DNA of 18,931 nt from a bacterium (GTDB lineage Bacteria > Arandabacterota > Arandabacteria > Arandabacterales > JALGWA01): contig JASFEA010000058.1 of NCBI GenBank assembly GCA_050125095.1, forward strand, positions 1 through 18,931. Direction: 5' to 3'. This document shows positions 1,236 to 18,338 of the stretch, piece after piece; the stretch's first letter is position 1; every line of letters starts with the position of its first letter. Both the position numbers and the translations under genes were made by a program. The notes under the pieces are model-generated. The model had not been told where the DNA came from. It did not search any database and saw only the letters and a program-made list of their open reading frames with translations.

Positions 1236-1264
1236 GCCGTCCGCGTGACCGCGGAGGAATCGTC

Positions 1265-2023: not shown

Positions 2024-2768
2024 ACACCGATACCAAGAGGTACCCTGGAAGGAAATTCCAGGGATAGAATATATAGCCCAAGAGCTCCACGAGGCCGAGC
2101 CAGGCCACCCTTAATATGGGGACTCTCGCGAAGTAATATTTCAGGAAGTGCAGCTCCGCAATGAACCCCATGCGGTATTCCTTAACAAGCCGCCCGGGGA
2201 CTTTGGCCTCGAGGCCCCTGAGCGTGGAGATGGGCATCTCGTAGCCGGGCTGCCACAGGCCGAGGCGGTCGGCGTATGCCTTGCCGGCCTTGTATATTCG
2301 CGCGTCGGCTGAAGGGACCATTATTATGACCTTGCCGTCGGGCTTGGTGACGCGCAGCATTTCGCTTACCGCTCTGGCCTGCTCGGCCTCATCGAAGTGC
2401 TCGATCACGCCGCCGTTCCAGGTTACGTCGTAAGTGTCGTCCTCCATGGGCATATCGAGTATGGAGGCGTTGTAGGTCTCGGGATGGTATCCCTCGAACA
2501 TGAAGCAGGCCTTGGAGAGCGTGAGAGCGGGTTCGGATATATCGAGCAGGCTGACTTCCGCCCCGCGCTTGGCCAGGCCGAGCGAGACCAGGCCGTGGCC
2601 CGAGCCCGGCTCCAGCACCTTCTTGCCCCGGGCGTCGGGAAGCTCGCGCTTTAATATGGCCGACACGGTCCTGTAGATAATGTCCTTGCCGGCGACAGCC
2701 GGGATCTTGCTCCGCCGGCGCGTGTCCTTCCTCTGCCAGATCTCGTCCCAGCGCTCTTTCTGTTCCAT
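2007..2768 (-). CDS. Class I SAM-dependent methyltransferase (substrate unknown)
   Basis: Motif I VLEPGSGHG, acidic LLDIS, DDTYDVTWNGGVIEHF and EMLRVTKPDGKVII. Overlaps the tatD 3' end convergently by 17 bp. Confidence 0.9.
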   Translation of the reverse strand: MEQKERWDEIWQRKDTRRRSKIPAVAGKDIIYRTVSAILKRELPDARGKKVLEPGSGHGLVSLGLAKRGAEVSLLDISEPALTLSKACFMFEGYHPETYNASILDMPMEDDTYDVTWNGGVIEHFDEAEQARAVSEMLRVTKPDGKVIIMVPSADARIYKAGKAYADRLGLWQPGYEMPISTLRGLEAKVPGRLVKEYRMGFIAELHFLKYYFARVPILRVAWLGLVELLGYIFYPWNFLPGYLLVSVFKKEG

Positions 2769-2842
2769 ATTCCTAAACTACCACCCCGTATTTCGGTGGC
2801 ACAACACCAAATTGGCATGTTGGGCCGGGTTGTGTTGAGCTG

Positions 2843-2866
2843 TTGTGCATTTTGAGACCTGACCCC
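2843..2866 (+). repeat. 24-bp dispersed repeat TTGTGCATTTTGAGACCTGACCCC (copy 1)
   Basis: Identical to 7566-7589, read directly from the sequence. Confidence 0.9.
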
Positions 2867-2918
2867 TGGTTTGCCTTGGTTTTCCGTGGCACAAAGGGGA
2901 ACATTAGAGGTGCTTTTA

Positions 2919-2947
2919 TTGAAATCCGCCGCCAAATGTGTTAGAAT
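2919..2947 (+). promoter_or_regulatory. Putative sigma70 promoter for the C25 peptidase gene
   Basis: TTGAAA (2919-2924), 17-bp spacer, TAGAAT (2942-2947), with an extended -10 TG at 2939-2940. Confidence 0.6.
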
Positions 2948-3081
2948 GGGAATGATCAGGATTAGCAGCCAGAGAACATCTATTGGTAGATCAAATATGG
3001 GCAATTGTATTCGGTATAGATACGTACTTCGGCGCGGGCGAGTGCACCGCGCCTTCGCCTTTTAGTGGGAGGAGGAAGACC

Positions 3082-6000
3082 ATGAAGCAGCGGTATATTC
3101 TGATTTTGTTGCTGGTGGCGGGCGTCGGCGGCCTGGTCACCGGCAGCGCGGATGCGGCCGCGGGGGCTCACATTTATAATGTCCCCGCCCCGGAGATGAG
3201 AGAGACCGGGGAACATGTCTATTACAGGATAGAGGGGTTCGGGTCCAGCACCAATCCCTATTACCCGGTGCTTCCCACCAAGACGGTTCACTATGAGGTG
3301 CCGTTCGCGGCCGAGAACATCGACGTAATGGTGTCCCCGGGAGGCGCGCAGTCGCTCGGCACCTTCGACAATTACCTCATGCGCCAGCCACCCCTTCTAC
3401 TCGGGGACCCCACCTATAAGCCGCCCGCTAAGCCCGAGCAGCTTCCGGACGTGACGCCGGCCGAGTTCTATCGCTATGACGGCGTGCAGGTCATGAGGGG
3501 GCACAAGCTCATAAGCGTGACCCTGTATCCCCTGAGATACGACTTTGCCAGCGGCGAGATCACTTATGTGTCCTCATACAGCATTCAGGTTTCCTATTCC
3601 ATGGCCGTGAGCGACAGGGAGTCGGTAGAGATGGCGATGGGCGAGCGCTCACGCGCTTTCGAGCCGCTTGCCAGGGGCATAATAGAGAATTACGGCGAGT
3701 TCGACGAGACCCTCTCGGCGGGCGGGCCCGCAGAGCCCCTCTACGATCTCAATAATCCGCAGTACGCGATTATCACCACTTCGACCTTCGAGAGCGCGGC
3801 GCAGGACCTCGCGGACTGGAAGACCAGGAAGGGCGTCCCCACGGAGGTCTACCTGGTTTCCTGGATCGAGTCCAACTACACGGGCTACGATACCCAGGAG
3901 AAGATCAGGAATTTCCTCCGGCTCAACAACTCCACACCGCGCTTCGACTATGTGCTGCTTCTCGGTGATACCAATACTATCCCCGCGAGATACTGCTGGT
4001 CACAGGACGGCGACGATGTGCCGGCGGACTACTATTTCTCGGACGTAGTCGACGGTTCGATCGGATCCAGCTATGACTGGGATACAGACAACGACCATGT
4101 GTGGGGAGAATTCAGCGATACCATTACCTGGCTTCCGGATACGTATGTGGGCCGCGTGGCGAGCAGAAACGCCACCGAAGTCCAGGACTATGTTGATGCC
4201 ATAATCGAATACGAGACCGATCCGCCCGTGAATTCATGGCCCACGAAGGCGGTTTTCGGCTCGGCATTCGCCAATTACCCCGAGGCCGGATACGATCACA
4301 CCGACATGGCGGCGGTGGCCGAGCATGTAAGGACGGACTTTCTCAATCCGGCCGGAGTGACTTATGACAGGCTCTACGAGGCGGACGGTATATACCCCAC
4401 GTCGTATACCTACGATTACGCTCTTACGGCCACCAACTTCGAGACAAGGGTCGGTCTGGGCTGCGGTTTTGCGTTTCCGAGCGGCCACGGCAATCCGTCC
4501 GGCAACTACCGCCTCATATGGTCATGGGATGACGGAGACGGCTACTACGACGACGGCGAGGGTTCATGGGCCGACCTCTGCACACAGAGCTACAATCCCT
4601 CAACGGGCGAGGAGAAACCCTATGTGCTGGTCGGCGCCTGTCAGGCCGGGTGGTTTGACCGCACAGGTGCGTGCCTGGGCGACTACGTGATCGCCAACTG
4701 GGGTATCGGATGTGTAGCCTCCGCGAGGAACTCATATTACTGCGTGGGCTGGGACGACCCCGACTGGCCGTGGAACCAGGGCCAGGAATACCGGTGGTGG
4801 GAGGAGATCTTCTCCAACGGCAAGATCCATATGGGCCAGATACACGGCGACAACAAATACAACTATGCCAGCGATTTCAACACGCTTTACGACGGCGACT
4901 ACGGGCCGGACAACGACTACGCGTCGCGCAAGAACATGTTCTCGTCCAACCTGTTCGGCGACCCGGAGCTTCCGGTATGGACGGACACCCCCACGGCGCT
5001 GGCGGCGAGCCATGACGCCACGCTGCCGGTCGGCCCGTCTTCGTTTACGGTGACGGTGACATCGGGCGGCAGCCCTCTTTCGGGCGCCACGGTCTGCCTG
5101 TGGAAGGGCACGGAGGTCTATCTTGTCGACACGACCGACGGGTCGGGAGAGGTGACGTTCAGTCCTTCGCCGGCGACCACCGGCACCATGTACGTAACCG
5201 CGTCAAAGCACAATTACATCCCGGACGAGAGCTCCGCGACGGTGGAGGAAGGCGGAGACACCGAGGACCCGGTAGTTACGGTGACATCGCCTGACGGTGG
5301 GGAGACCTGGGGCGTCGGCTCGGCTCATGACATCACCTGGGCCGCCACCGACAATGTCGGTGTGACCTCCATAGATATCCTGCTTTCCACCGACGGTGGT
5401 TCTACTTTCCCGACGACCATAGCCACGGGCGAGGCGAATGACGGAACTTATCCATGGACGGTGCCGGCTGAGATTACGACTCAGGCGCGGGTCAAGGTCA
5501 TCGCCTATGACGCTGCGGCCAACAGCGGCGAGGATGTCAGCGATGCCGACTTCGAGATCAGCGACATGACCCCTCCTTCGGTGACGGTCACCGACCCGAA
5601 CGGCGGCGAGGTCTGGGGCATAGGCACGGTTCACAACATAACCTGGAGTGCCACGGACAATATCGGCGTGACCTCGGTAGACCTCTATCTCTCCACCGAC
5701 GGCGGCTCTACTTTCCCGACGACCATAGCAACGGGCGAAGCCAATGACGGCACGTATCCATGGACGGTGCCCTCGAGCCCCACGACTCAGGCGCGGGTCA
5801 AGGTGGTGGCTCATGACGCCGTCGGCAATCCGGGCGAAGATATCAGCGATAACAACTTCGAGATCCATGACGGCATAGACCCGTCGGTTACGGTGACTTC
5901 GCCCAACGGCGGGGAGGTCTGGGATATCGGTACGGTTCATTCGATTACGTGGACGGCGACGGATAACATCGGCGTGACTTCGATTGACATCCGGCTCTCG

Positions 6001-7398
6001 ACCGACGGCGGCGCCACCTTCCCGACTGTCATCGCCACGGGCGAGGCCAGTGACGGCTCATATCCGTGGACGGTGCCGTCGAGTCCCACGACGCAGGCGC
6101 GGGTTAAGGTACTCGCGCACGACGCCGCGGGGAATTCGGGCGAAGACATGAGCGATGCCAACTTCACCATACGCGACGGCACGGACCCGTCTGTCACGGT
6201 GCTAGACCCCAATGGCGGTGAGGCATGGGAGGTCGGCTCGGCTCATGATATCGAGTGGAACGCAACGGACAATATCGGCGTGACTTCGATCGACATCCTG
6301 CTGTCCACCGACGGCGGCGCGACGTTCCCGACGACGGTAGCGACGGGCGAGGTAAACGACGGCACTTATCCCTGGACCGTACCCGACGAGGTGACGACAC
6401 AGGCGCGTATCAAGGTCGTAGCCTATGACGCCGGCGGGAATTCGGGAGAGGATATAAGCGACGCCGACTTAGAGATCGTGGACACCAGCGACCCGGTCGT
6501 CACCGTGACGTCTCCCAACGGCGGCGAGGTCTGGGACATCGGGTCGATCCGCAGCATCACCTGGACGGCCACCGACAATGTCGGCGTGACCTCAATCGAC
6601 ATCCGGCTTTCCACCGACGGCGGCGTTACCTATCCTACGGTTGTCGCCACGGGCGAGGACAATGACGGCGTCTATCCCTGGAATGTGCCGGCTGTGCCGA
6701 CGACGCAGGGACGCGTTAAAGTGATCGCGCATGACGGCGAGGGCAACACGGGTGAGGACGTGAGCAATGCCAACTTCACCATCCGCGACGATACGAGCCC
6801 GTCCGTTACGGTGATCGAGCCGAACGGCGGCGAGATATGGGACATCGGAACGATCCACGACATAGAGTGGAACGCGACGGACGACGTCGGGGTCGCGCAT
6901 GTCATGATCCTCCTTTCCTCCGACGGCGGCCTGACGTATCCGGATACGCTGGCGACGGGAGAGGCAAATGACGGCGTCTATTCATGGGATGTGACGCAGG
7001 CCGCGACCACGGCGGCGCGCATCAAGGTCATCGCCGATGACGCAGGCAATAACAGCGGCGAGGACATAAGCGACGCCGATTTCGAGATTTATGACCCGCT
7101 GGCCGGCACGGATATAACGGCGGACATTCCGGCAAGCGCGGTCATAACCGGAAACTCCCCCAATCCGTTCAGCGGGGCCACGGCGATCAGTTTCGGAATA
7201 CCTCGCGACGGCAGAGTGCGGTTGGCGATGTACGACGTGAGCGGCAGGGAGGTTGATGTGCTGGTCGACCAGGCTTTCCCGGCCGGTTACCATTCGGTCA
7301 CCTGGCAGGATGGCGGCGCGACGGGTACGGGACTCTATTTCATAAGGCTGAGGTTTGATTCTGAAGAGGTGACACATAAGGTTGTGATTTCCAGGTAG
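3082..7398 (+). CDS. Secreted C25 (gingipain-like) cysteine peptidase: signal peptide, propeptide, catalytic domain, Ig-like domain, six tandem Ig-like repeats, C-terminal FlgD-Ig/T9SS-type sorting domain
   Basis: ATG 3082 follows a GGAGGAGG RBS and starts a signal peptide (MKQRYILILLLVAG...). C25 motifs LADWKTRKG, YVLLLGD, PADYYFSD, YVGRV, catalytic His in SGHG and Cys in GACQAG, LFGDPELPVW. The C-terminus NSPNPFSGATAISF..MYDVSGREV..GYHSVTW..GLYFIRL..THKVVISR fits a sorting domain. Confidence 0.9.
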   Translation: MKQRYILILLLVAGVGGLVTGSADAAAGAHIYNVPAPEMRETGEHVYYRIEGFGSSTNPYYPVLPTKTVHYEVPFAAENIDVMVSPGGAQSLGTFDNYLMRQPPLLLGDPTYKPPAKPEQLPDVTPAEFYRYDGVQVMRGHKLISVTLYPLRYDFASGEITYVSSYSIQVSYSMAVSDRESVEMAMGERSRAFEPLARGIIENYGEFDETLSAGGPAEPLYDLNNPQYAIITTSTFESAAQDLADWKTRKGVPTEVYLVSWIESNYTGYDTQEKIRNFLRLNNSTPRFDYVLLLGDTNTIPARYCWSQDGDDVPADYYFSDVVDGSIGSSYDWDTDNDHVWGEFSDTITWLPDTYVGRVASRNATEVQDYVDAIIEYETDPPVNSWPTKAVFGSAFANYPEAGYDHTDMAAVAEHVRTDFLNPAGVTYDRLYEADGIYPTSYTYDYALTATNFETRVGLGCGFAFPSGHGNPSGNYRLIWSWDDGDGYYDDGEGSWADLCTQSYNPSTGEEKPYVLVGACQAGWFDRTGACLGDYVIANWGIGCVASARNSYYCVGWDDPDWPWNQGQEYRWWEEIFSNGKIHMGQIHGDNKYNYASDFNTLYDGDYGPDNDYASRKNMFSSNLFGDPELPVWTDTPTALAASHDATLPVGPSSFTVTVTSGGSPLSGATVCLWKGTEVYLVDTTDGSGEVTFSPSPATTGTMYVTASKHNYIPDESSATVEEGGDTEDPVVTVTSPDGGETWGVGSAHDITWAATDNVGVTSIDILLSTDGGSTFPTTIATGEANDGTYPWTVPAEITTQARVKVIAYDAAANSGEDVSDADFEISDMTPPSVTVTDPNGGEVWGIGTVHNITWSATDNIGVTSVDLYLSTDGGSTFPTTIATGEANDGTYPWTVPSSPTTQARVKVVAHDAVGNPGEDISDNNFEIHDGIDPSVTVTSPNGGEVWDIGTVHSITWTATDNIGVTSIDIRLSTDGGATFPTVIATGEASDGSYPWTVPSSPTTQARVKVLAHDAAGNSGEDMSDANFTIRDGTDPSVTVLDPNGGEAWEVGSAHDIEWNATDNIGVTSIDILLSTDGGATFPTTVATGEVNDGTYPWTVPDEVTTQARIKVVAYDAGGNSGEDISDADLEIVDTSDPVVTVTSPNGGEVWDIGSIRSITWTATDNVGVTSIDIRLSTDGGVTYPTVVATGEDNDGVYPWNVPAVPTTQGRVKVIAHDGEGNTGEDVSNANFTIRDDTSPSVTVIEPNGGEIWDIGTIHDIEWNATDDVGVAHVMILLSSDGGLTYPDTLATGEANDGVYSWDVTQAATTAARIKVIADDAGNNSGEDISDADFEIYDPLAGTDITADIPASAVITGNSPNPFSGATAISFGIPRDGRVRLAMYDVSGREVDVLVDQAFPAGYHSVTWQDGGATGTGLYFIRLRFDSEEVTHKVVISR
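5257..7092 (+). repeat. Six tandem 306-bp (102-aa) intragenic repeats encoding Ig-like/beta-sandwich domains (PxVTVxxPNGGExW...STDGG...WTVP...SDxxFxI)
   Basis: Units start at 5257, 5563, 5869, 6175, 6481 and 6787, an exact 306-bp period. Copies are diverged at many synonymous sites. Confidence 0.93.
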
Positions 7399-7424
7399 TA
7401 AGGGCAGGAGGCCCGAAGCAGTTG

Positions 7425-7460
7425 ACGGGCCCCGGCAGGTTGTGCCGGGGCCTGTTTTTG
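7425..7460 (+). terminator. Rho-independent terminator after the C25 gene
   Basis: ACGGGCCCCGGCA-GGTTG-TGCCGGGGCCTGT hairpin followed by a T-rich tract, about 27 nt after the stop codon. Confidence 0.8.
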
Positions 7461-7565
7461 TAGTTCTTGTTTCCCACGGGTCCTATCTCTGGTGCGCGTG
7501 GCCCGTCTCCGGTACCCGAGGACTGCCTCTGTGCCTCCTGAGAGCCGGTGCCTGCTGCGATACGA

Positions 7566-7630
7566 TTGTGCATTTTGAGACCTGACCCCATCGCGATGTG
7601 CATTCTAAGACCTGACCCCAACCTGACCCC
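7566..7630 (+). repeat. Cluster of GACCTGACCCC-type repeats: full copy 7566-7589, variant 7597-7619, partial 7621-7630
   Basis: TTGTGCATTTTGAGACCTGACCCC, TGTGCATTCTAAGACCTGACCCC and ACCTGACCCC occur in tandem in the same orientation. Confidence 0.88.
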
Positions 7631-7636
7631 AATTGC

Positions 7637-7666
7637 TTGACCGGGCGGCGGGCTTTCTCATAGAAT
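7637..7666 (+). promoter_or_regulatory. Putative sigma70 promoter for the 7689 gene
   Basis: TTGACC, 18-bp spacer, TAGAAT, followed by an AGGAGG RBS and ATG 7689. Confidence 0.55.
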
Positions 7667-7688
7667 CTCAAGACAAAGGAGGTGTGCG

Positions 7689-8057
7689 ATGGAAATGATG
7701 CAGCAGCCGGACAGCCCGGAGGAATCCCTGAAGCGCGCTTGCAGGATCGCGGCGGACAGCGCGGGATGGATGAAGCTCCTCGGAGTTCTCTCAATCATAC
7801 AGGGCGTATTCGCCGTGTTCACCATATGGGGCATTCTCATCGCGTGGCTGCCCATCTGGCTGGGCGTGATTCTGTTCAGGGCCGCCAACGAGGCCGAGAT
7901 GTCCGCGGCCGGCCTTACGAACCATCTCGAGTCCTATCTCAAGCGGCTCAACAAGTACTTCCTCATCCAGGGTATACTGGCCCTGCTCATGATTGTGGTC
8001 GGACTGGTCATGGCGTTCGTGTTCGGAGGGCTCTTCCTGGCCGGGATCCTGGACTAG
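7689..8057 (+). CDS. Small membrane protein, DUF5362-like
   Basis: Strong RBS and hydrophobic segments. GWMKLLGVLSIIQG...IWGILIAWLPIWLGVILF...LNKYFLIQGIL resembles the DUF5362 family (recognised from memory). Confidence 0.75.
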   Translation: MEMMQQPDSPEESLKRACRIAADSAGWMKLLGVLSIIQGVFAVFTIWGILIAWLPIWLGVILFRAANEAEMSAAGLTNHLESYLKRLNKYFLIQGILALLMIVVGLVMAFVFGGLFLAGILD

Positions 8058-8060
8058 GGA

Positions 8061-9122
8061 TCAGATTCCCGGAAGCGTGTCGGCGTTAAGGGTTATGCCG
8101 CGGTCGGTGTAGCGCTCGCCGCATATGCGGTATGCGGCAAGATAGAAGTGGTGCTTTCCTATCGAGAAGCGGACTACATTGGGCTTTATGAGCCGCGGCC
8201 TCCTTATCTTCCTCTTTCCCGTGGCCAGCGCCATGATGAGCGAAGCCTTGGGGTGGAATTGCCTGTCCTTAAGCTGGGACACCCATGGAGGCATGGTGGT
8301 CTCGTCCGCCTCGCTGAACCTCCAGCCCTTATCTTTTACCAGTTGCTTCTCGATATCGTAAGGGTGGGTATGGAAGTCCGCCACGATGTCGGCGCCGAGC
8401 ATCAGGTAATCCATGACGGCCATCTGGATCTCCACGCTGCGGAGATCGTAATCCACCCGGTCCACGAATCCCTCCGCCCTGACCTGTGTTCGCACTCCCC
8501 TCAAGTGTACATAATGGGAGGTGTGCTTGCCGTGCCCCCGGCGCCTCTCTTTGCTCGAGCGCGTCGAGCCCAGGCAGATGCCGTATACTTCGGTGAAAGG
8601 GGTGCCCTTTCCCTTTGGTACCGAATAACCCTCGAGGGCGAGAAGCAGCATGTCGCCTATGGCCCGGTCTTCCAACCTTATGGTCATGTCCTCATGCCGT
8701 TCGTCTACCTCGAAACGCCACGGCGTCTTGCTGTCGGCCACGAGGTCACGGTACTCGCTGAGATGCATGTCCAGCTCGTTCCATAACGCCTCGAGGCACT
8801 TGATCTCGCGTTTGTGGACCCTGTGGCGCGTGGAAACCGTTCCCTTGCTGGCGCCGTAAATGCTTTTCTCATACCATGCCCGGGGGATCTTGTACCTGTC
8901 GAGGGCGACGCGCTTCTCGATCCTGACGAGCAGGTTGTAAAGGTTGCCCCGGGGCACGGATTTGCGGTCGGCGTGCCCCGTGAAGAGGGTGAATGCAAGG
9001 GCGCGTTTGATATCGAACCTGATCTTGCTGCACCGGCGGTTTCCGTGGCAGCGCCTTATGTAGGAATCCAGCGCCTCGTTGAATTCATGTATGTATTTGC
9101 AGTAGCGAGTTAACCTTGGCAT
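8061..9122 (-). CDS. Hypothetical protein with a basic N-terminal region and a C-terminal JAB/MPN (JAMM-motif) metalloenzyme-like domain
   Basis: 353-aa ORF filling the gap, with a GGGAG/GGGGG RBS-like upstream sequence. It carries EVYGICLG ... IVADFHTHP ... FSEAD, matching JAMM E-x(n)-HxH-x(n)-SxxD with a longer HxH-to-S spacer. Confidence 0.72.
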   Translation of the reverse strand: MPRLTRYCKYIHEFNEALDSYIRRCHGNRRCSKIRFDIKRALAFTLFTGHADRKSVPRGNLYNLLVRIEKRVALDRYKIPRAWYEKSIYGASKGTVSTRHRVHKREIKCLEALWNELDMHLSEYRDLVADSKTPWRFEVDERHEDMTIRLEDRAIGDMLLLALEGYSVPKGKGTPFTEVYGICLGSTRSSKERRRGHGKHTSHYVHLRGVRTQVRAEGFVDRVDYDLRSVEIQMAVMDYLMLGADIVADFHTHPYDIEKQLVKDKGWRFSEADETTMPPWVSQLKDRQFHPKASLIMALATGKRKIRRPRLIKPNVVRFSIGKHHFYLAAYRICGERYTDRGITLNADTLPGI

Positions 9123-9344
9123 AAGCCCCCAAAACTCCCTTCCAAAACATTGTATTTATCGGCAGGAGGGACGTCAAGGTGGAGCTCTCAGGCGTCGCCG
9201 GAGGTCGCATGTCGCATACTCGGTGCAATTGGCGCATTATACGAATATTAGGGTGGTCCGGGTTGATCCAGCGATGCCCCCAGGAGCGCCGGAATACAAG
9301 CCCCGGGAGAGCACTATGCAGGCGCTTTCACACCCCCAATCCGC

Positions 9345-9373
9345 TTGACATCCCTAAATTACTGTGTTATACT
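9345..9373 (+). promoter_or_regulatory. Near-consensus sigma70 promoter
   Basis: TTGACA (9345-9350), 17-bp spacer, TATACT (9368-9373), with an extended -10 TG. Predicted start about 9380. Confidence 0.85.
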
Positions 9374-9379
9374 ACACGT

Positions 9380-9518
9380 GGTCAGAAAAACCGAAACGAG
9401 GTGATGTCAGCGACAGCTTGCTAAGAGGTTAGGACTCAATAGAGTCCAGTTCACGATCTAAAACTGAAGGTCTTGAAATGAACCTCTGGCAGGCAGAGTG
9501 CGCTGGCGTTTTTCTTCC
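9380..9518 (+). ncRNA. Candidate structured RNA (sRNA or rsmA-operon leader), family not recognised
   Basis: Begins at the predicted TSS. Nested stems: 9384-9389/9510-9515, 9404-9412/9501-9509 and 9416-9430/9481-9494. Two apical hairpins at 9432-9447 and 9450-9477. Several G-U pairs; ends in TTTTTCTT. Confidence 0.6.
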
Positions 9519-9558
9519 TATCCTGGAATCTCCGCATTGTCTCCTGCCGGCCCTGCTT

Positions 9559-10407
9559 ATGGGCGCGACCTTGAGCCAGCTCGCAATCCTTAAGAAACAC
9601 GGCCTGCGGCTCAAGAAGAGCCTTGGGCAGCACATCCTGGCGGACGCCAATATCGCGCGCAAAATAGTGGACGCCCTCGACCTTGGACCCGATGAGGGCG
9701 TCGTGGAGATCGGTGCGGGCCTGGGGGCGCTTACCACCGAGCTTTCCAGCCGCGCGGGGCGCGTCATCGCCATCGAGATAGACGGCCGGCTGGCCTCCGC
9801 TCTCCGCGAGGAGACCAACGGCAACGTGGACATCCTGGAGGCCAATTTCCTTGCGCTCGACTTCGGTAAGCTCCTGGCGAAATATCCCGATATTAAGACA
9901 TGGAAGGTAGTGGGCAATCTTCCCTACTACATCACGACGAACATACTGCTTCATCTCATAGACGCGAGGGAGCATTTCAAGACGGCCGTGATAACCGTGC
10001 AGGACGAATTCGCGAAGCGTATCGTGGCCGGACCCGGCACGAAGGACTACTCTTCGCTTTCGATACTGATCAGATACAGATTTGAGCCGGAAATCATGTT
10101 CCAAGTCAAACAGACAAGTTTTTTCCCACGTCCCGACGTGCGGTCTAGCGTCGTACGTCTAAGCGTGCTCGAACGACCTGGGGTTGATGTGAGAGAAGAG
10201 GGGCTTTTCTTTCAGACTATAAGAGCGGCGTTCGGGCAGAGGCGGAAGACTCTGAGAAGGAGCCTCAGGCAGATACCAGGGCTAACGCCGGAAACGATAG
10301 AAGTCGTTAGTCGCATGTCGGGCGTGGGATCAGATAGAAGACCGGAAGACCTTTCGATAGAAGAATTTGCCAGCCTGGCTAACGCGGTGAAGGATGTGGT
10401 TGGGTGA
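9559..10407 (+). CDS. rsmA: 16S rRNA (adenine-1518/1519-N6)-dimethyltransferase KsgA/RsmA
   Basis: KKSLGQHIL, VVEIGAGLGALT, AIEID, VVGNLPYYIT, FFPRPDVRSSVV, AFGQRRKTLR and RRPEDLSIEEF. Start placed at ATG 9559 (TTG 9571 also possible) rather than 9478, which lies inside the structured RNA. Confidence 0.96.
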   Translation: MGATLSQLAILKKHGLRLKKSLGQHILADANIARKIVDALDLGPDEGVVEIGAGLGALTTELSSRAGRVIAIEIDGRLASALREETNGNVDILEANFLALDFGKLLAKYPDIKTWKVVGNLPYYITTNILLHLIDAREHFKTAVITVQDEFAKRIVAGPGTKDYSSLSILIRYRFEPEIMFQVKQTSFFPRPDVRSSVVRLSVLERPGVDVREEGLFFQTIRAAFGQRRKTLRRSLRQIPGLTPETIEVVSRMSGVGSDRRPEDLSIEEFASLANAVKDVVG

Positions 10408-12446
10408 TGGCGCGGCTTATCGCGTTACAATTCCTCATTATCCTTCTGGGGGCCGGACTGTTGTCGGCCTGCCTGGCGCAGGACGCCGACGGAGAGCCAG
10501 CCGACTCTGCAGGGGCGGCGGACTCCGCGGCGGTGGTGGATGGCTTCGAGGAAGACGATGAGAGCCCGGACGATGAGCGCTCCGACCTCGAGACGGAGCC
10601 TCCCGACTTCGAGGCGGCCCCCCCGGCGGGCCGCCCGGGATCTCTGCCCGTCTCCTATGAACACTGGTACGACACAACGCATCCGTCTGTGGAGTTCTCG
10701 TTCTCAAAGGAGAAAGACGTCGGCAACTGGGACGCCAGGATCGCACTAAACCAGCAGTTTGGAGCCAAGTTCACGGCGCGCCTCAATGCGTCGATTCGCA
10801 ACCATGAGAACACCACCCTGAATCGCGCCGACGCGAGCGACGGAACGAGTGCGTCCCTGTCGTACCAGCTGAATCCCGACGTGAGCTTCTCGCTCAACTA
10901 CAACTCAACCGTGCTCGCCAACTGGTACAATCTCAAGGGCGGGGCCCCCGATGACAGAAAGAAGCGGGGGAGTTTCACGGTCGCAGCCGACATGTCAAAG
11001 GCCCTGACGAGCGGCCTCGGCCTGAGAGTCCACTTCGGCGGCGGCGCCACGCAGAACTCGTACACCAACCAGAGGAACTCCGGCAACCAGGGCGACCTCG
11101 GCGCCTCAATGACGTTTAATCCCCTCGGATCGAGCCTCCGCGCGTCGGCTGACTACACGAGTAAGCAGAGCTTCCTGAACTCCGAGCTGGCCGACTCGAC
11201 CGGGGCTCTAACGCTTGAGACCAAGGACAAGACCGTCTCACAGAACCTCTCCTTCAACGTGGGCTTCGACCTGTTTCCCGGCATGCGCGTCGGGACCAAT
11301 TTCCTCGCGAATGACGAGCAGAAGCAGCGCCCCGAGCAGCTTACCAACGAGCAGGAAACGGAACGGAATAAGAGGCGCGGCGTGTCGGTAAATACCAATT
11401 ACAGGTTTTCTGACAGGTTCACATGGGAGGCCGCTGTCAGCCTGAGCAGGTCGAAGAGACGCTTCCTTGTCAGGTACGACAGGAACAGCGACGTCAACAA
11501 CGCCGCGATAAACGGCAGCATGAAGATCATCCCGTGGAGCGGTGCGACTCTGAGCATGGGCGGGAAGTGGAGCGACGCCCGCTCGGAATATATTACGGCC
11601 GATACGGGCAACAGCATACAGAAATCCCTCAGTCTCAAGTACGCCCAGAAACTCGGGCCCAAGGCGGATGTCAGCTTCAGCGCCCTGTCGGACCTCTCCG
11701 TCACCGCCTATGACGACAAGGTGGCGAATTTCAAGGACAGGGATTTGCTGACCAACCGCTACAGGCTCGATTTCGGCTATAAACTGCGCCCGCGCATCAG
11801 TCTTTCCCTCGGCGGCGAGTTCTCCGACGAGACCAACGTTTACACGCAGTCCAAACAGTCGGCCAGTAACAGGAACGCGGAGCGGTACAGGGTAACCGGA
11901 GCCTATGACATCAAGACATGGAAAAGCGTCAGCATCAATCAGAGATACGAAATCAGCCAGGTCTTCACGGATTACCATTACGACGACACGCGCAACACGC
12001 TGGTAAGGAACTCGAATATAAATACCAGCGTGGACTTCAAGATCGTCAGCAGCCTCGGCCTCAACCTCCGCCATAATTACAAGTACCAGGACCAGGGCAG
12101 TTACAGGAGAGAGGGCGGGCAGCGTCTTTACGGGAGAGCGACCGAGAGCGAGTCGCACCTGCTCAGCATCGCCGTAAACTACAAGATGGGCAAGCACCTC
12201 AATTTCAGGATCCGGCAGGGATTCTTCACGGATACGCGCTGGAAGTACCAGGATGACGGCTCAAAAGAGCTTGAATACGTTGTGCAGAATACCGACATAA
12301 GTGGTAGGGTGGGCTTCAATTACAAGATCGGCGACACTTCAGAGCTTGCCTTCCACGTTGAGCACAACAGGAAGGAAGGCGACCGCGTAAACGCGGCTTT
12401 CAGGAATTACTGGAATGCGGAAATCCGAGCAAAGCACATCTTCTAG
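10407..12446 (+). CDS. Large outer-membrane beta-barrel protein of unknown function
   Basis: ATG overlaps the rsmA stop (TGATG). Signal peptide, acidic disordered linker, then about 590 aa of alternating amphipathic strands ending in WNAEIRAKHIF (terminal Phe, BAM beta-signal-like). Confidence 0.8.
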   Translation: MARLIALQFLIILLGAGLLSACLAQDADGEPADSAGAADSAAVVDGFEEDDESPDDERSDLETEPPDFEAAPPAGRPGSLPVSYEHWYDTTHPSVEFSFSKEKDVGNWDARIALNQQFGAKFTARLNASIRNHENTTLNRADASDGTSASLSYQLNPDVSFSLNYNSTVLANWYNLKGGAPDDRKKRGSFTVAADMSKALTSGLGLRVHFGGGATQNSYTNQRNSGNQGDLGASMTFNPLGSSLRASADYTSKQSFLNSELADSTGALTLETKDKTVSQNLSFNVGFDLFPGMRVGTNFLANDEQKQRPEQLTNEQETERNKRRGVSVNTNYRFSDRFTWEAAVSLSRSKRRFLVRYDRNSDVNNAAINGSMKIIPWSGATLSMGGKWSDARSEYITADTGNSIQKSLSLKYAQKLGPKADVSFSALSDLSVTAYDDKVANFKDRDLLTNRYRLDFGYKLRPRISLSLGGEFSDETNVYTQSKQSASNRNAERYRVTGAYDIKTWKSVSINQRYEISQVFTDYHYDDTRNTLVRNSNINTSVDFKIVSSLGLNLRHNYKYQDQGSYRREGGQRLYGRATESESHLLSIAVNYKMGKHLNFRIRQGFFTDTRWKYQDDGSKELEYVVQNTDISGRVGFNYKIGDTSELAFHVEHNRKEGDRVNAAFRNYWNAEIRAKHIF

Positions 12447-13044
12447 GCCCGCGGCCAGGGCGGCCCTGATTCTGATGGGATGCCTGGGGCTGGCCGTGGC
12501 GACGTCCTGTTTTTCCACCAGGGACGCGGCCGCTCCCACAACCGGCAGCGGCGACGTGCCCCTCAACCCGCTCTCGGCCTCGGATGTGCTGTATAACATG
12601 GAAGTCGCAATCAAGCAGAAGGACCCGGTCTATTACGAGGAGCTATTCTCTGAGGCATTCCGGTTCAGTCCATCCTCATCTGATTCGGCGGAAGTCGAGA
12701 AGGACTTCCCCGGGGCCTTCTCAAACTGGGACAAGGCGGTAGAGACGGGAGTGATGACGTATATACTCGATCCCGTGCGCAGCGGCATTGCGCGCCTAAA
12801 TCTCCTGGAGGAAATTCTGGACTTCACGGACACGACTTATGAATATCAGGTGGATTACGACCTGATTCTGGAGCATTTGGACGAGGAGGGCACACCGACT
12901 TATATGGGTTACTACGGCCAGGCGCGGCTCTTCCTGAGGAAGCTGCCGGATGGCTACTGGTATATAGAGAGATGGTCCGACTTCAACGAGCCCCCGGAAG
13001 TTTCGTGGGGCCGCCTCAAAGGCGAAACCAGAGGAAGAATGTAA
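12415..13044 (+). CDS. Putative lipoprotein, NTF2/SnoaL-like fold
   Basis: Hydrophobic segment with lipobox-like VATSC. Pattern VLYNMEVAIKQKDPVYYEELFSEAFRF ... WDKAVE ... WYIERWSD. Overlaps the barrel gene 3' end; exact start uncertain. Confidence 0.7.
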   Translation: MRKSEQSTSSRPAARAALILMGCLGLAVATSCFSTRDAAAPTTGSGDVPLNPLSASDVLYNMEVAIKQKDPVYYEELFSEAFRFSPSSSDSAEVEKDFPGAFSNWDKAVETGVMTYILDPVRSGIARLNLLEEILDFTDTTYEYQVDYDLILEHLDEEGTPTYMGYYGQARLFLRKLPDGYWYIERWSDFNEPPEVSWGRLKGETRGRM

Positions 13045-13058
13045 GGGAGGGTAGCGGT

Positions 13059-13625
13059 ATGAGACGATGGGTGCGGGTGCTTCTAATGATCTCTTTTTCG
13101 CTTTACATGGTGGGCTGCTCGGTAAGCAGCGACGACGGCCCGCCGGTGGACCCCGAATTCGACCGGACGACACCGGAAAACCTCATCAAGTACTTCGCGG
13201 ATGCATATGAGAAGGAGGACATTGATAAATACGAGGAGTCTCTTCACGACCAGTTCCTGTTCGAGTTCCTTCCCGACGACGCCGACTCTGCGGGGCTGCC
13301 GCCGGACACGCCCTGGTGGGGAAAAGTGTCGGAGGTGACCGCCGCCGGGAAGCTATTCGACGCAGCGACCATAACCAAGATCGAGATGGATCTTCCAATT
13401 GACGTGGGCCCATGGGATACGGAAGACGGGCTGGGTTTCCGGCTGGATCCCCTGATCAAAGTCACGGAGGAGAAGCCGGATTATACCGAGCCCAAGGTCT
13501 ACCAGGTTGAGGACAGCTATCTGTACGTAGAGACCGTCAGGGACCCGTATGACGAGGACCTGTGGGTGTTCAAGGAGATCACTGAGACGAAGAAGGAAGG
13601 CTTTCTCGCCAGCGCAGGAAAGTGA
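13059..13625 (+). CDS. Putative lipoprotein, NTF2/SnoaL-like fold, paralogue of the upstream gene
   Basis: GGGAGG RBS and ATG 13059. MRRWVRVLLMISFSLYMVGC lipoprotein signal. TPENLIKYFADAYEKEDIDKYEESLHDQFLFEF ... WGKVSE ... WVFKEITE. Confidence 0.75.
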   Translation: MRRWVRVLLMISFSLYMVGCSVSSDDGPPVDPEFDRTTPENLIKYFADAYEKEDIDKYEESLHDQFLFEFLPDDADSAGLPPDTPWWGKVSEVTAAGKLFDAATITKIEMDLPIDVGPWDTEDGLGFRLDPLIKVTEEKPDYTEPKVYQVEDSYLYVETVRDPYDEDLWVFKEITETKKEGFLASAGK

Positions 13626-14046
13626 GCCAAGGATTGGGGTAGCCAAGCTTACAGCCGCCATTGCCGTGCTTGTGGCGTTGGCGGCTCTCGTTTACTTCTC
13701 GCGTGACGCCATAGAACGCGTCATAGCGCCGGAGCGGCCCGATGTCGCCGCCATAGCCGCGGCCGTGGACAGCGCCTATGCCCGGATACGGCCGGTGAGC
13801 ATCGACTCCAGAAGCGTAGACATGGACGGCAGGCCGGTCCGCTGCGACTATGTAAGGCTCAGCCGCAGCCGCTCATTGCTGAGGGCCAACCTGGAGCTGA
13901 CCCGCGCCGTAGAAAAGGCTGGAGGAGGCGTCCTTTATGGTATAGAGTCATACGACGAGCAGAAGCGCAAGCAGTTCCTGACCCTGGGCATATCGAGCGA
14001 TGACAGCCTGGTATGCGAAGTCAAGCTCGAGAGGGGGATTCGGTAG
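13549..14046 (+). CDS. Hypothetical membrane-anchored protein (start uncertain)
   Basis: The ORF fills the gap to pdxJ. A single hydrophobic helix (LTAAIAVLVALAALVYF) is followed by an alpha/beta domain. Confidence 0.6.
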   Translation: MTRTCGCSRRSLRRRRKAFSPAQESEPRIGVAKLTAAIAVLVALAALVYFSRDAIERVIAPERPDVAAIAAAVDSAYARIRPVSIDSRSVDMDGRPVRCDYVRLSRSRSLLRANLELTRAVEKAGGGVLYGIESYDEQKRKQFLTLGISSDDSLVCEVKLERGIR

Positions 14047-14062
14047 GCGGAGGTAGGCTTGA

Positions 14063-14776
14063 ATGGCTAGACTGGCAATCAATGTTGACCATGTCGCGAC
14101 CGTAAGGCAGGCGCGCGGCATAACCTTTCCGGACCCGGTCGAGGCCGCGGTGCTGTGCGAGCATGCCGGAGCGGACGGCATCGTGGTGCACCTCAGAGAG
14201 GACAGGCGGCATATACAGGACCGGGACGTCAGGCTCCTCCGGGAAATTGTGAAGACCAAGCTCAATCTTGAGATGGCCGCCACCCCGGAGATAATAGCCA
14301 TAGCCCAGGAAGTGCGCCCCGACATCGTGACGCTCGTGCCCGAGAAGCGGGAGGAGCTCACCACGGAGGGCGGGCTGGACGTCAAGGGCAACCTCCAGGC
14401 CTTCGAGCGCGCCATAACCGAGCTCCGCGACGCCGGTATCCGCGTGAGCTGCTTTGTGGACCCGGATATCTCCCAGATCAAGGCCTCAATCGACTCGGGC
14501 GCCGACATAGTAGAGATACACACGGGCGCTTACGCCGAAGCCGCGGACGAGGAGGCGGCCGGGATCGAGCTTGAGAAGATCGCCAAGGTGGCCGGATTCG
14601 CGTCAAAGGGGGGCTTGAGGGTAAGCGCGGGGCACGGCCTCAACTACTGGAATACCAGGCCGGTAGCCGGGATCGACGAGGTAGAGGAGCTCAGCATCGG
14701 GCATGCCATTATCGCGAGGGCCATCATGGTGGGCCTGACCCAGGCCGTCCAGGAGATGATATTGCTCGCCGAGTAG
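14063..14776 (+). CDS. pdxJ: Pyridoxine 5'-phosphate synthase
   Basis: [71 protein letters not shown] and ELSIGHAII. Confidence 0.98.
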
Positions 14777-14864
14777 GCCGGAGGCCGCACTCCGGCGGGC
14801 CCCGAGGGGCGATTCGACCGGGCCCGGGGGCCGATTCGGCCGCCGGACCGCCCGGATTTACCTG

Positions 14865-14893
14865 TTGACACAGCCTATGGGGCACCTTAAACT
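14865..14893 (+). promoter_or_regulatory. Putative sigma70 promoter for secDF
   Basis: TTGACA (14865-14870), 17-bp spacer, TAAACT (14888-14893). Confidence 0.75.
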
Positions 14894-14983
14894 ATCTTCT
14901 CGGTTATTCCTTGAAGATGAGCCGCATGCGGCTCTTATTGCTAGCTGCATATCCGAAACGAACTTAAAAAGAAGGGTCTCCGC

Positions 14984-16651
14984 ATGGGCAGTGTGAAGTG
15001 GCGTGTAATTCTGATCGCTATAGTCGTGATAGTCGCCCTGTACTATCTCTACCCCACCCTGAAGATTGTGTCCCTCTCCCCCGAGGAGAAGGCCGACATG
15101 CCGGCCGAGGAGTTCGCCCAGCTTAAGAACAGGGCCATTCACCTGGGCCTGGACCTTCAGGGTGGAATGCACGTCGTCCTCGAAATCGACAAGACCGCAA
15201 TCCCCGACGACGACCTCGAGAACACCATGAATAAGGCTGAAACGGTCATCCGCAACCGTATAGACAAGTTCGGCGTGTCCGAGCCCATAATCCAGAAGCA
15301 GGGCAACGACCGCCTGGTGGTGCAGCTCGCCGGCGTGCAGGACGAGGAGCGGGCCAAGGAGCTGCTGGGCCGCATGGCCCTCCTGGAGTTCAGGCTTCTC
15401 AAGGAGGGCGACGAGTTCAGGCAGATTATCGCCACCGTGGACGAGTCGCTTCACGTCGATATCAGGGAAATGACGGCCGATCTTGCGGCAGAGGAGTTCG
15501 AGCGCGAGCTCGAAGAGGCGGCCATGGACTCGGATACGACCGGGCTCCGCGACGAGCTGGAGGAAGAGCTGGCCAGGGGCCGGTCCTTGAGATCCATGAT
15601 AAACTTCATCCCCCTCGGGAGCGGGGAAGCGGTGCATGAGAACGCCATGGTCGAAGGCAAGTACATTCCGACCGTAAAGCGCATATTGGAACTCGCCGAC
15701 GAGCGCGGCCTTATACCCGTAGATGTAGAGGTACTCTGGGACTATGAGGTCGAGCAGGGCAAGGAAGACACCTTCCAGTACATCTACCTGGCCGAGCGCA
15801 AGCCTCAGCTCACCGGCAAGCACATCAAGCGCGCCTCCGTGGGATTCGGGCTCGACCCCGACTACCCCAACATGCCCGGCGTGCGCATGGAGATGAACCG
15901 GGTGGGGCGCTCGCTTTTCGCCAAGACCACGGGCGAGAATATCGGCCGCAGGCTGGCCATCGTCCTGGACGACAACGTACACTCGGCTCCCAATATCAAG
16001 GAGAAGATCCGGAGCGCCACGGCGTCCATCACGGGCAGTTTCGACGGCGATACCGCCAAGGCCCTCGCGGTCGTGATCGAGGCCGGCGCGCTGCCGGCTC
16101 CACTCATATTTGCGGAGGAGCGTTCGGTCGGGCCCTCGCTGGGACGCGACTCCATATCCGCGGGCGTCAGAGCCGCCATAATCGGCCTCATCGCCGTAGC
16201 CATATTCATGGTGATTTACTACCAGCTCTCGGGAATGCTGGCCATACTGGCGCTTGTCCTCAACCTCATCATAGTCCTGGCTGCGCTGGGCGGGCTGCGC
16301 GGCACGCTGACGCTGCCGGGCATCGCGGGTATCATCCTCACCATCGGCATGGCGGTTGACGCCAACGTGCTCATATTCGAGCGAATCCGCGAGGAGCTCG
16401 GCCTCGGCAAGACCGTGAGACGGGCCGTAAAGGACGGATACTCGAGAGCCTTCTACACGATTCTCGACGCCAACATAACCACGCTGATCGCCGCTGGCGT
16501 TCTGTACCAGTTCGGCACCGGCCCCATAAGGGGATTCGCGGTAACGCTTTCCATCGGTATTCTCGCGAGTATGTTCACGGCGATCATCGTGACCAGAACC
16601 GTATTCGACGGCATAACAAGCGTAAGAAGAATTGACAAGCTGAGCATTTAG
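14984..16651 (+). CDS. secD: Protein translocase subunit SecD
   Basis: LGLDLQGGMHVVL, IRNRIDKFGVSEP, LAIVLD, AGALPAP, VGPSLG, LTLPGIAGIILTIGMAVDANVLIFERIREE, DANITT and GPIRGFAVTL. Confidence 0.98.
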   Translation: MGSVKWRVILIAIVVIVALYYLYPTLKIVSLSPEEKADMPAEEFAQLKNRAIHLGLDLQGGMHVVLEIDKTAIPDDDLENTMNKAETVIRNRIDKFGVSEPIIQKQGNDRLVVQLAGVQDEERAKELLGRMALLEFRLLKEGDEFRQIIATVDESLHVDIREMTADLAAEEFERELEEAAMDSDTTGLRDELEEELARGRSLRSMINFIPLGSGEAVHENAMVEGKYIPTVKRILELADERGLIPVDVEVLWDYEVEQGKEDTFQYIYLAERKPQLTGKHIKRASVGFGLDPDYPNMPGVRMEMNRVGRSLFAKTTGENIGRRLAIVLDDNVHSAPNIKEKIRSATASITGSFDGDTAKALAVVIEAGALPAPLIFAEERSVGPSLGRDSISAGVRAAIIGLIAVAIFMVIYYQLSGMLAILALVLNLIIVLAALGGLRGTLTLPGIAGIILTIGMAVDANVLIFERIREELGLGKTVRRAVKDGYSRAFYTILDANITTLIAAGVLYQFGTGPIRGFAVTLSIGILASMFTAIIVTRTVFDGITSVRRIDKLSI

Positions 16652-16662
16652 CGAGGTCGACA

Positions 16663-17559: not shown

Positions 17560-17606
17560 ACCGTACCTGCGGACTGTACATGAAAGGCGACACGGTTATC
17601 CATTTC

Positions 17607-17637
17607 TGGACAGCAATCCGGCTGTGTGTATTATAAT
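17607..17637 (+). promoter_or_regulatory. Possible promoter upstream of the 17733 gene
   Basis: TGGACA at 17607-17612 and TATTATAAT at 17629-17637. The spacer is 16 or 19 bp depending on the -10 chosen. Confidence 0.4.
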
Positions 17638-17732
17638 CATATTGTGAGACCCCATTTTACAGGGTCTTGGGAGGAGAGAACGGGGATGGGCGGCTGGCAC
17701 GGCACTTGCTCTAAAGAGGAGGTAGCCTGATC

Positions 17733-18305: not shown

Positions 18306-18338
18306 GTCTTCGCTCTCCCTGTGCAGGCAGGGGTGGCC

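Follow-up and report, generated by a model that had tools for sequence, protein, structure and literature searches.

RsmA (KsgA), the dimethyltransferase that modifies A1518 and A1519 of 16S rRNA, is one of the few rRNA-modifying enzymes common to all life and constitutes a late checkpoint in small-subunit assembly; to our knowledge, little has been described of how cells set its level. Relatives of RsmA provide one type of control region, the erm leaders (ermC and relatives), which precede rRNA adenine dimethyltransferases of the same family and in which a helix hides the Shine-Dalgarno (SD) sequence or the start region, while a short upstream open reading frame (ORF) overlaps the sequestering strand. 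In Escherichia coli, ksgA is reportedly autoregulated at translation, as van Gemen et al. are said to have described (J Bacteriol 1989), and we know of no conserved folded leader described for that gene. Here, we analyze an 18,931-nt stretch of DNA, referred to in its entirety as the window (contig JASFEA010000058.1 of assembly GCA_050125095.1, positions 1 to 18,931 of the forward strand), from a bacterium of the GTDB lineage Arandabacterota; Arandabacteria; Arandabacterales; JALGWA01, and focus on a folded RNA element at the beginning of its rsmA (ksgA) transcript. We consider it probable that this element is a new cis-regulatory leader and translation-initiation region of the rsmA mRNA, that is, a translational operator or attenuator.

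In kind, the rsmA leader appears to resemble the folded translational operators of ribosome-related genes and the leaders that sequester ribosome-binding sites. Like the erm leaders, it precedes an enzyme of this family, holds the start region in a helix and carries a short ORF over the sequestering strand; unlike them, it has a mini-ORF with a spacing of only 2 nt, no conserved peptide and one lineage in which the ORF is absent, and the enzyme is the housekeeping RsmA (a TIGR00755 equivalog) rather than a resistance enzyme. With the reported autogenous control of E. coli ksgA it would share the gene and the proposed level, translation initiation, but that gene lies inside an operon, whereas rsmA here has its own promoter and a 98-nt folded 5′ untranslated region (UTR). 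Ribosomal-protein leaders, e.g. that of rpsF (PMC3895269), are likewise covarying cis folds at the ribosome-binding region of a gene for the translation apparatus, and both kinds of leader would be expected to couple synthesis of the gene product to the state of ribosome assembly. The rsmA leader differs from them in being unrelated in sequence and model to the catalogued leaders, in preceding an rRNA methyltransferase gene and in showing no detectable rRNA mimicry. A further likeness is to the STAB-SD of Bacillus thuringiensis cry3A, a 5′ mRNA stabilizer which is thought to hold the 30S subunit (PMC4113751): in both cases, a long leader carries, close to its 5′ end, an SD-like word that is complementary to the 16S 3′ end and is not used for initiation of the gene behind it. 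The rsmA word differs in that it forms part of a larger fold, with which it partly pairs, is directly followed by an AUG and belongs to a different phylum; its action, too, may differ, the fold being opened instead of a 5′ exonuclease being blocked.

Architecture of the rsmA leader

The features of the leader are as follows; all structures given here and below are predictions.

9345-9373, + strand: sigma-70-type promoter, with the -35 hexamer TTGACA (9345-9350), a 17-nt spacer, the extended -10 TG (9365-9366) and the -10 hexamer TATACT (9368-9373)
9380 (± 2 nt), + strand: putative transcription start, placed solely by promoter geometry, 7 nt past the -10 hexamer
9393-9406, + strand: 5′ SD-like element GAAACG-AGGUGAUG, in which AGGUGAU (9399-9405) is complementary to the 3′ tail of 16S rRNA
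9404-9412, + strand: 5′ strand of helix P1, AUGUCAGCG, pairing with 9501-9509 in the minimum-energy fold
9416-9430, + strand: 5′ strand of helix P2, GCUUGCU-A-AGAGGUU, which includes the third SD-like word, UAAGAGG
9432-9447, + strand: hairpin P3, GGACUC-AAUA-GAGUCC, at the three-way junction
9450-9477, + strand: hairpin P4, varying between lineages and containing the rsmA SD AAGGUC (9467-9472), 5 nt 5′ of the start codon
9478-10407, + strand: rsmA (ksgA) reading frame, 309 aa, with its start ATG (9478-9480) at the three-way junction
9481-9494, + strand: 3′ strand of P2, AACCUCUGGCAGGC, equal to rsmA codons 2-6; its ACCUCU resembles an anti-SD
9501-9509, + strand: 3′ strand of P1, CGCUGGCGU, equal to rsmA codons 8-11
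9509-9516, + strand: U-rich tract UUUUUCUU, directly 3′ of P1, in codons 11-13 (Val-Phe-Leu); not scored as a terminator

The promoter had already been proposed, as TTGACA-17-TATACT, in a first-pass annotation made from the DNA letters, and it holds up: the sequence matches the consensus at 11 of 12 positions and carries the TG of an extended -10. Its architecture is shared by all 25 homologues with enough upstream sequence, where the 17-nt spacer and the TG are constant (25/25), the -35 hexamer is TTGACA in 24 and TTGACT in one, and the -10 hexamer is TATACT in 24 and TATAAT in one. The 1-kb region contains two promoter-like sites, compared to 0.3 ± 0.6 in shuffled sequences. Transcription would thus begin around position 9380. 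Promoters of such strict consensus number 16 in the genome, and one of them drives 6S RNA.

Folding and covariation among relatives

On the + strand, the segment 9380-9518 has a predicted folding energy of -55.8 kcal/mol, compared to -35.3 ± 3.5 kcal/mol for 200 dinucleotide shuffles (z = -5.85, with none of the 200 as good). The - strand of the same segment yields a z of only -2.44, with 4/200 shuffles as good, and this asymmetry indicates that the signal resides in the RNA of the + strand. The ~140-nt structured RNA drawn in the first-pass annotation is therefore real as a fold, and helices P1, P2 and P3 as well as the 9450-9477 hairpin (P4) are all present in the minimum-energy structure. 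Other parts of that drawing were not confirmed. The outer helix AGAAAA/UUUUCU does not occur in the minimum-energy fold as written and is unconserved outside the genus; the side hairpin ACC..GGU is likewise absent and unconserved, and its stretch corresponds to the conserved purine-rich SD-like element. The alternative pairing CAGUU/AACUG, suggested as a pseudoknot or switch, is not kept in the alignment of the other three sequences of the genus.

A nucleotide search (blastn) recovered the element in 5/40 relatives. A covariance model (R1) built from six sequences matched 12/16 species genomes of the order, which are also the 12/18 matching genomes of the whole phylum in our collection and 12/151 relatives overall; among the 135 genomes outside the order, the model found no match, neither in the sister family within the class (0/2) nor in other phyla (0/133). 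In both sister-family genomes, rsmA is present but lacks the leader. Within the order, four genomes gave no match: one in which a diverged copy is recognizable by eye (G004), one with rsmA cut by a contig end (G014), one in which no rsmA was found with the query used (G008) and one that is 57% complete (G015). In the diverged leader of G004 (L063:2393-2512, - strand), which was missed by the model, translation would start at a GTG, and the promoter, P2 and the region of the start are all retained; the P3 sequence is wholly different (ACCAAACU/AGUUUGGU) and the 5′ word, GGGGGUGAGG, has AGG in place of the AUG. An exact-pattern scan identified 13 loci in the species-genome collection, 12 of them real, and an additional 17 metagenome contigs; the thirteenth locus, on a Mesorhizobium chromosome (L027), fails the covariance model and was taken as chance. 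The combined set contains 35 model matches, representing 27 distinct sequences. Each genome has one match, never away from rsmA, except for G013, where two short contigs carry a near-identical leader and rsmA start (C315:157-286 and C154:111-240; L017 and L021). This metagenome-assembled genome (MAG) has a contamination of 6%, and the two copies are probably two strains binned together, not a duplication.

Because all these sequences, taken from MAGs and metagenome contigs, belong to a single order and are mutually related, column shuffles overstate the significance of covariation, and controls in which the pairing partners are slid along the alignment provide the fairer comparison. In the model-fitted alignment of the 27 distinct rows, 89.1% of cells are paired and 12 pairs have changed on both sides, compared to 7.6 ± 1.5 in column shuffles (0/500 reach 12) and 3-5 when the partners are displaced by 1-3 columns. 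A similar picture emerged from 25 sequences aligned independently with MAFFT and given a hand-written structure: 85.2% of cells are paired and 13 pairs have changed on both sides, compared to 8.2 ± 1.6 in shuffles (0/500 reach 13) and 4-7 with slid partners. In P1, 5/7 pairs (model-fitted) or 7/10 pairs (MAFFT) are double-changed; only 67.5% of its cells are paired in the MAFFT alignment, because one subgroup uses a shifted register, as read from the folds. P2 has 96.7% of cells paired (25 sequences), and two of its pairs switch from C-G to U-A by changes on both sides; P3 has 92-96% of cells paired and 4/6 pairs changed on both sides, with an unconserved loop. RNAalifold on the MAFFT alignment recovers the outer part of P2 and P3 unaided. 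The check on relatives that the first-pass annotation had called for thus shows P1, P2 and P3 keeping their pairing through compensatory changes, as expected of a cis-regulatory leader, and the covariation, together with the strand asymmetry, bears out its suggestion that selection acts at the RNA level.

The rsmA start site lies within the fold

The first-pass annotation had placed the element between the upstream gene and rsmA. This is not what we find, as the rsmA frame opens at ATG 9478, inside the fold. The product of the frame is RsmA, scoring 246.4 bits against TIGR00755 (cut-off 171) over aa 44-303 and matching PF00398 at 1.4e-53, and it is encoded by the sole full-length RrnaAD gene in the genome. 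In 26 distinct homologues, the corresponding start codon is ATG (22) or GTG (4), always in frame with rsmA (26/26), and the homologues have no other conserved start between this codon and the conserved KKSLGQH motif. An SD, AAGGU, is found 5 nt upstream of the ATG, and AAGG is nearly invariant 5-8 nt upstream of the start in relatives. The resulting N-terminal extensions are 87, 93, 96 or 99 nt long, all multiples of 3, and behind the fold substitutions at codon positions 1/2/3 amount to 143/69/219 (33 pairwise comparisons, the pairs not being independent). Owing to these lengths and the third-position excess, the ~30 extra N-terminal residues of RsmA are, on coding signature, translated. In the window, the extension (9478-9573; MNLWQAECAGVFLPILESPHCLLPALLMGATL) is hydrophobic and proline-rich and precedes the part covered by the ksgA model, which begins at aa 44. 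With rsmA starting at 9478, positions 9380-9477 constitute a 98-nt 5′ UTR, and positions 9478-9516 hold codons 1-13, which at the same time supply P2 and P1 with their 3′ strands.

The ribosome-binding region is predicted to be occluded. The probability that codons 2-5 are unpaired is 0.02 in the window and 0.00-0.17 in the 25/25 homologues folded. For the SD, the unpaired probability is 0.07-0.17 in the genus of the window and 0.27-0.99 in other lineages, and the rsmA AUG itself is mostly unpaired in the predicted ensembles. The element lies on the same strand as rsmA and is joined to this one gene type in all homologues with a readable start (26/26).

These observations also bear on the possibility that the element is a free-standing small RNA (sRNA) acting in trans, with its own promoter and 3′ end and merely abutting rsmA. 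A strong conserved promoter, a compact stable fold, terminator-like hairpins after the fold in 12/25 relatives and the lack of a matching catalogued family would suit such an RNA. However, the fold holds the sole conserved rsmA start and SD, fused in frame in 26/26 homologues, is never found apart from rsmA and is followed by sequence that evolves as coding, and no terminator is scored in the window. Rather than a self-contained unit independent of its neighbor, the element includes the first 13 rsmA codons, and we regard a trans-acting sRNA as very unlikely. Thus, of the two readings offered in the first-pass annotation, the cis-regulatory or attenuator leader of rsmA is supported, given that start, SD and first ~13 codons lie inside the fold, and the discrete sRNA is not.

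The 5′ SD-like element and a possible mini-ORF

The 5′ part of the transcript has the form GAAAG-NN-AGGUGAUG, and AGGTGATG is present in 27/27 distinct aligned homologues. The element begins 14-25 nt after the -10 hexamer, i.e. ~7-18 nt from the predicted start of the transcript; for the invariant AGGUGAUG, the distance from the predicted 5′ end is given as 12-18 nt. With the 16S rRNA end of the same genome, GGAUCACCUCCUUUCU, the element is predicted to form a duplex of -16.6 kcal/mol in the window and of -15.7 to -20.7 kcal/mol across 25 homologues; the former value falls in the top 0.4% of 150,000 random windows of the genome. Duplexes of the real SD with the 16S tail have -4.4 to -16.9 kcal/mol and are weaker than those of the 5′ element in 25/25. 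The leader thus has a 5′-proximal, 16S-complementary SD-like word that does not start the downstream gene, as in STAB-SD or standby sites. When the 5′ element and the next 19 nt are forced to be single-stranded, the mean accessibility of codons 2-5 rises from 0.04 to 0.39 in the model computation, a result that is consistent with, and not decisive for, opening of the fold by the 30S subunit.

Further inside the leader, UAGAGG in P2 pairs with the anti-SD-like ACCUCU of codons 2-3, and the alternative given by RNAalifold pairs the real SD with the same ACCU; since the SD-like words are invariant, covariation cannot choose between their pairings. In one family, the 5′ AGGUGAU could also pair with GUCACA, a word situated between P2 and P1; this pairing is absent in the genus of the window and was dismissed as a general feature.

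The AUG of the 5′ element opens a possible mini-ORF.

9404-9424, + strand: possible mini-ORF AUG UCA GCG ACA GCU UGC UAA, doubtful as a peptide

The mini-ORF has 6 codons in 23/27 sequences, 3 codons in two, 1 codon (AUG-UAG) in one and 15 codons in one. In the 23/27, its stop is the invariant UAG/UAA of P2; the AUG is invariant although its partners in P1 vary, and the inner codons vary as well. A conserved peptide was rejected as unlikely because lengths of 1, 3, 3 and 15 codons occur, the inner codons vary and G004 has AGG for AUG.

Leader peptides govern the expression of the Erm methyltransferases, paralogues of RsmA, and by analogy ribosomes translating or stalled on the mini-ORF could unwind P1 and P2 and expose the rsmA start. 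Such leader-ORF attenuation would account for the invariance of the SD-like word and AUG of AGGUGAUG in 27/27 while their pairing partners vary, for the in-frame stop after 5 sense codons in 23/27 and for the position of the mini-ORF, which covers exactly the 5′ strands of P1 and P2, the stretch whose masking makes codons 2-5 more accessible in the computation. On the other hand, only 2 nt separate the AUG from the AGG core of the SD-like word, too short for normal initiation, the peptide length is not kept in 4/27, codons 2-4 vary freely and the diverged G004 leader lacks the AUG. Neither a functional SD-start spacing nor a conserved peptide or peptide length is therefore found. Drug induction, moreover, makes little sense for rsmA, since RsmA confers sensitivity to kasugamycin rather than resistance (PMC8091054). 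Overall, we consider leader-ORF attenuation improbable.

Termination and transcript evidence

In 12/25 homologues, a terminator-like hairpin followed by a T-run is located at ORF nt 36-70, within codons 12-23. Its stems are of three unrelated kinds, CCACCC/GGGTGG (9 sequences), AAGCCC/GGGCTT (L030) and an 11-bp stem (L022); the twelfth case is a weak match with 3 G-C pairs in L033. Two of the sites within the first 23 rsmA codons are located as follows.

L034:1646-1668: terminator-like hairpin
L036:4490-4508: terminator-like hairpin

In the relatives with such a hairpin behind the fold, a short terminated leader RNA may exist as an attenuation product. In the window, including 9500-9520, no terminator-like site was scored on the + strand, P1 being followed by UUUUUCUU only, and none was found within the ORF in the genus of the window (0/4) or in another subgroup (0/9). 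The U-tract may serve as a weak terminator. RNA-library contigs from one run (X5) cover 9479-9658 and 9739-9889; 9380-9478 is without cover, which carries no weight. The first of these contigs extends across the proposed 3′ end, by over 31 nt in either direction, and hints at read-through at 9516, weakly so, since such libraries can contain DNA. The discrete 3′ end that the first-pass annotation assigned to the U-tract is thus not supported for the window.

These data are relevant to a rival model that makes transcription attenuation the main means of control: together with a U-tract, the fold, or a dedicated hairpin directly behind it, would end most transcripts within ~25 codons, yielding an abundant leader RNA of ~135-170 nt, and a ribosome initiating at the rsmA AUG would melt the terminator and allow read-through, which would then be coupled to translation. 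The recurrence of terminator-like hairpins with three unrelated stems argues for this model, as does the CCACCC group, where CAC and GUG, the codons of the stem, show no synonymous change and the codon in the loop is variable; in addition, the strict 6S-type promoter seems too strong for a low-abundance enzyme, and P1 is directly followed by the U-tract in the window. The lack of + strand terminator-like sites in the window, its genus and the other subgroup argues against it; furthermore, P1 closes a 90-nt branched domain, which is atypical for a terminator hairpin, the U-tracts double as Phe/Leu codons in a stretch that is translated, and the RNA-library contig crosses 9516. Attenuation as the main mode of control therefore seems fairly unlikely to us; it can coexist with the translational leader that we favor.

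Comparison with known RNA families

When the whole window was searched with the covariance models of Rfam 15 (4227 families), no family matched the element at the gathering threshold, and over 9250-9620 on both strands there were zero matches at E<=10, the S-adenosylmethionine (SAM) and SAM/S-adenosylhomocysteine (SAH) riboswitch classes included. The first-pass annotation had failed to assign the element to a known family, and the Rfam check it proposed agrees with this. Two candidates, 6S RNA (RF00013) and the bacterial small signal recognition particle (SRP) RNA (RF00169), have no match in the window and were rejected because both RNAs are located elsewhere in the genome, at C69:11353-11538 (75.5 bits) and C29:4526-4625 (79.2 bits), respectively. 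With 6S RNA the leader shares a similar size class, the same type of strict consensus promoter and a long irregular hairpin; it differs in having no covariance-model match and a three-way junction in place of the central bubble, and in containing a start codon. The literature searches, which did not extend to the supplementary tables of large candidate-RNA surveys, where such a motif might be listed, turned up no account of a folded leader for rsmA/ksgA. To judge from these comparisons, the element is an uncatalogued RNA family from an uncultured phylum.

The RsmA family (PF00398) uses SAM, and a metabolite riboswitch responding e.g. to SAM or SAH, cofactor and product of RsmA, would be compatible with a three-way junction whose closing helices overlap the ribosome-binding region. 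Against such a sensor stand the Rfam searches, without any riboswitch match at E<=10, and the pattern of conservation, with the conserved nucleotides residing in helices and SD-like words and the junction strands, P3 loop and P4 varying; also, the element was found before just one type of gene and in just one order. A riboswitch is accordingly the reading to which we give hardly any weight.

Surroundings of rsmA and related promoters

The genes and sites around the leader are listed here.

8061-9122, - strand: upstream gene, divergent, 353 aa; neither Pfam nor NCBIfam gives a family at E<=0.001
9177-9149, - strand: promoter-like site for the upstream gene
10404-12446, + strand: gene of 680 aa overlapping the rsmA stop, no Pfam or NCBIfam family at E<=0.001
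14063-14776, same strand as rsmA, downstream: pdxJ
14984-16651, same strand as rsmA, downstream: secD
16663-17559, same strand as rsmA, downstream: secF

Gene order around rsmA is kept in 6/6 loci compared, and the 353-aa protein is 45-70% identical across all six. The label 'JAB', which the first-pass annotation had given to the upstream gene, could not be confirmed because the gene has no Pfam or NCBIfam match.

Some of the other strict promoters in the genome are worth recording in their own right. The 6S RNA gene lies ~60 nt downstream of a promoter of this type (C69:11265-11294). Contig C5 of G000 carries five tandem strict promoters, TTGACA...TCTGATATACT, on the + strand at 14972-23557, spaced by ~2.1 kb (region ~14972-23600). 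Four of these five, together with a promoter at C111:8170, are followed by a ~100-nt leader with a shared ..GCGTGGGGC(A/T).. word at its end and an SD of the GAAAGGAGG type, which looks like a repeated, highly expressed gene family sharing a conserved leader.

Proposed control of rsmA and points that weigh against it

In the mechanism that we favor, the near-consensus promoter would fire at ~9380 and the first ~135 nt of the transcript would fold into the closing helix P1, the long helix P2 and the three-way junction with P3 and the variable P4. The start codon at 9478 would then sit at the junction, with codons 2-6 in P2, codons 8-11 in P1 and, in this genus, the SD paired in P4. As a 30S subunit could not place the mRNA in its channel before P1 and P2 open, the fold would hold rsmA translation down. 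The 5′ word AGGUGAUG would most likely bind the 30S subunit, as a standby site or as a 5′-stabilizer site of the STAB-SD type, and with a subunit in this position the 5′ strands of P1 and P2 would be covered, favoring their opening. In about half of the relatives, the terminator hairpin in codons 12-23 would turn failed initiation into premature termination. The leader most likely controls the amount of RsmA.

Several observations weigh against this interpretation. The 5′ element is a strong SD-like word but not an extraordinary one, its duplex ranking merely 110th of 481 AGGTGAT sites in the genome, and it is partly paired in the predictions, with an unpaired probability of 0.01-0.68. P2 and the three SD-like words are nearly invariant and hence show little covariation in their pairings, and RNAalifold, run on the MAFFT alignment, chooses SD:ACCU in preference to UAGAGG:CCUCUA in the inner part of P2. 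As the 3′ strands of both P1 and P2 lie in coding sequence, their conservation may in part reflect selection on the protein. The RNA contig across 9516 comes from a metatranscriptome possibly containing DNA, at a depth of ~5, and contigs cannot show transcript ends. Finally, local alignment of the leader with the genome's own 16S rRNA scores 20, compared to 19.3 ± 2.1 in shuffles, of which 125/300 are as high.

The last result bears most directly on an autogenous operator, in which RsmA would repress its own translation by binding to the folded leader, which might mimic the rRNA substrate of the enzyme. Consistent with such a role, the helices are conserved in sequence and not in pairing alone, as in protein-binding operators, the genome has only this rsmA gene, and the reported autoregulation of E. 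coli ksgA would be a precedent. However, similarity to 16S does not exceed that of shuffles either for the whole rRNA or for its 3′ 200 nt, where the score is 13 vs 15.8 (292/300 shuffles as high), and substrate mimicry therefore lacks sequence support. The P3 loop is unconserved and is not the GGAA loop of helix 45, and the invariance of P2 is explicable by coding and pairing. Complementarity of the leader to 16S is somewhat higher, 23 vs 18.7 ± 2.2 (17/300 shuffles as high); we judged it to be chance because the best stretch includes nucleotides that vary in relatives. We hold an autogenous operator to be rather unlikely. Among candidate effectors of the leader, we would rank the supply of free 30S subunits first and RsmA protein second, with the leader-ORF mechanism and a metabolite last.

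A more specific version of the 30S-dependent mechanism, which is speculative and in our view improbable, is that the leader is a sensor of the small-subunit pool. Three invariant words, AGGUGAU at the 5′ end, UAGAGG in P2 and AAGGU as the real SD, would vie for the single ACCUCU of codons 2-3, and the 3′ tail of 16S rRNA, which adjoins the helix-45 adenines methylated by RsmA, would compete with ACCUCU for the same words. A 30S subunit on the 5′ word would pry P1 and P2 open, so that RsmA synthesis, joined in some lineages by read-through at the in-ORF terminator, would follow how many 30S subunits are available or how far they have matured.

Implications for RsmA synthesis

The leader is well supported as a structure, and its restriction to one order limits the reach of the finding. 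Within that order, the first 13 codons of the rsmA frame encode protein and would serve as regulatory helix as well. The sensor, if true, would represent direct feedback at the RNA level between the 3′ end of an rRNA and the enzyme that modifies it. The rsmA leader provides a concrete, testable case of RNA-level control of RsmA/KsgA.

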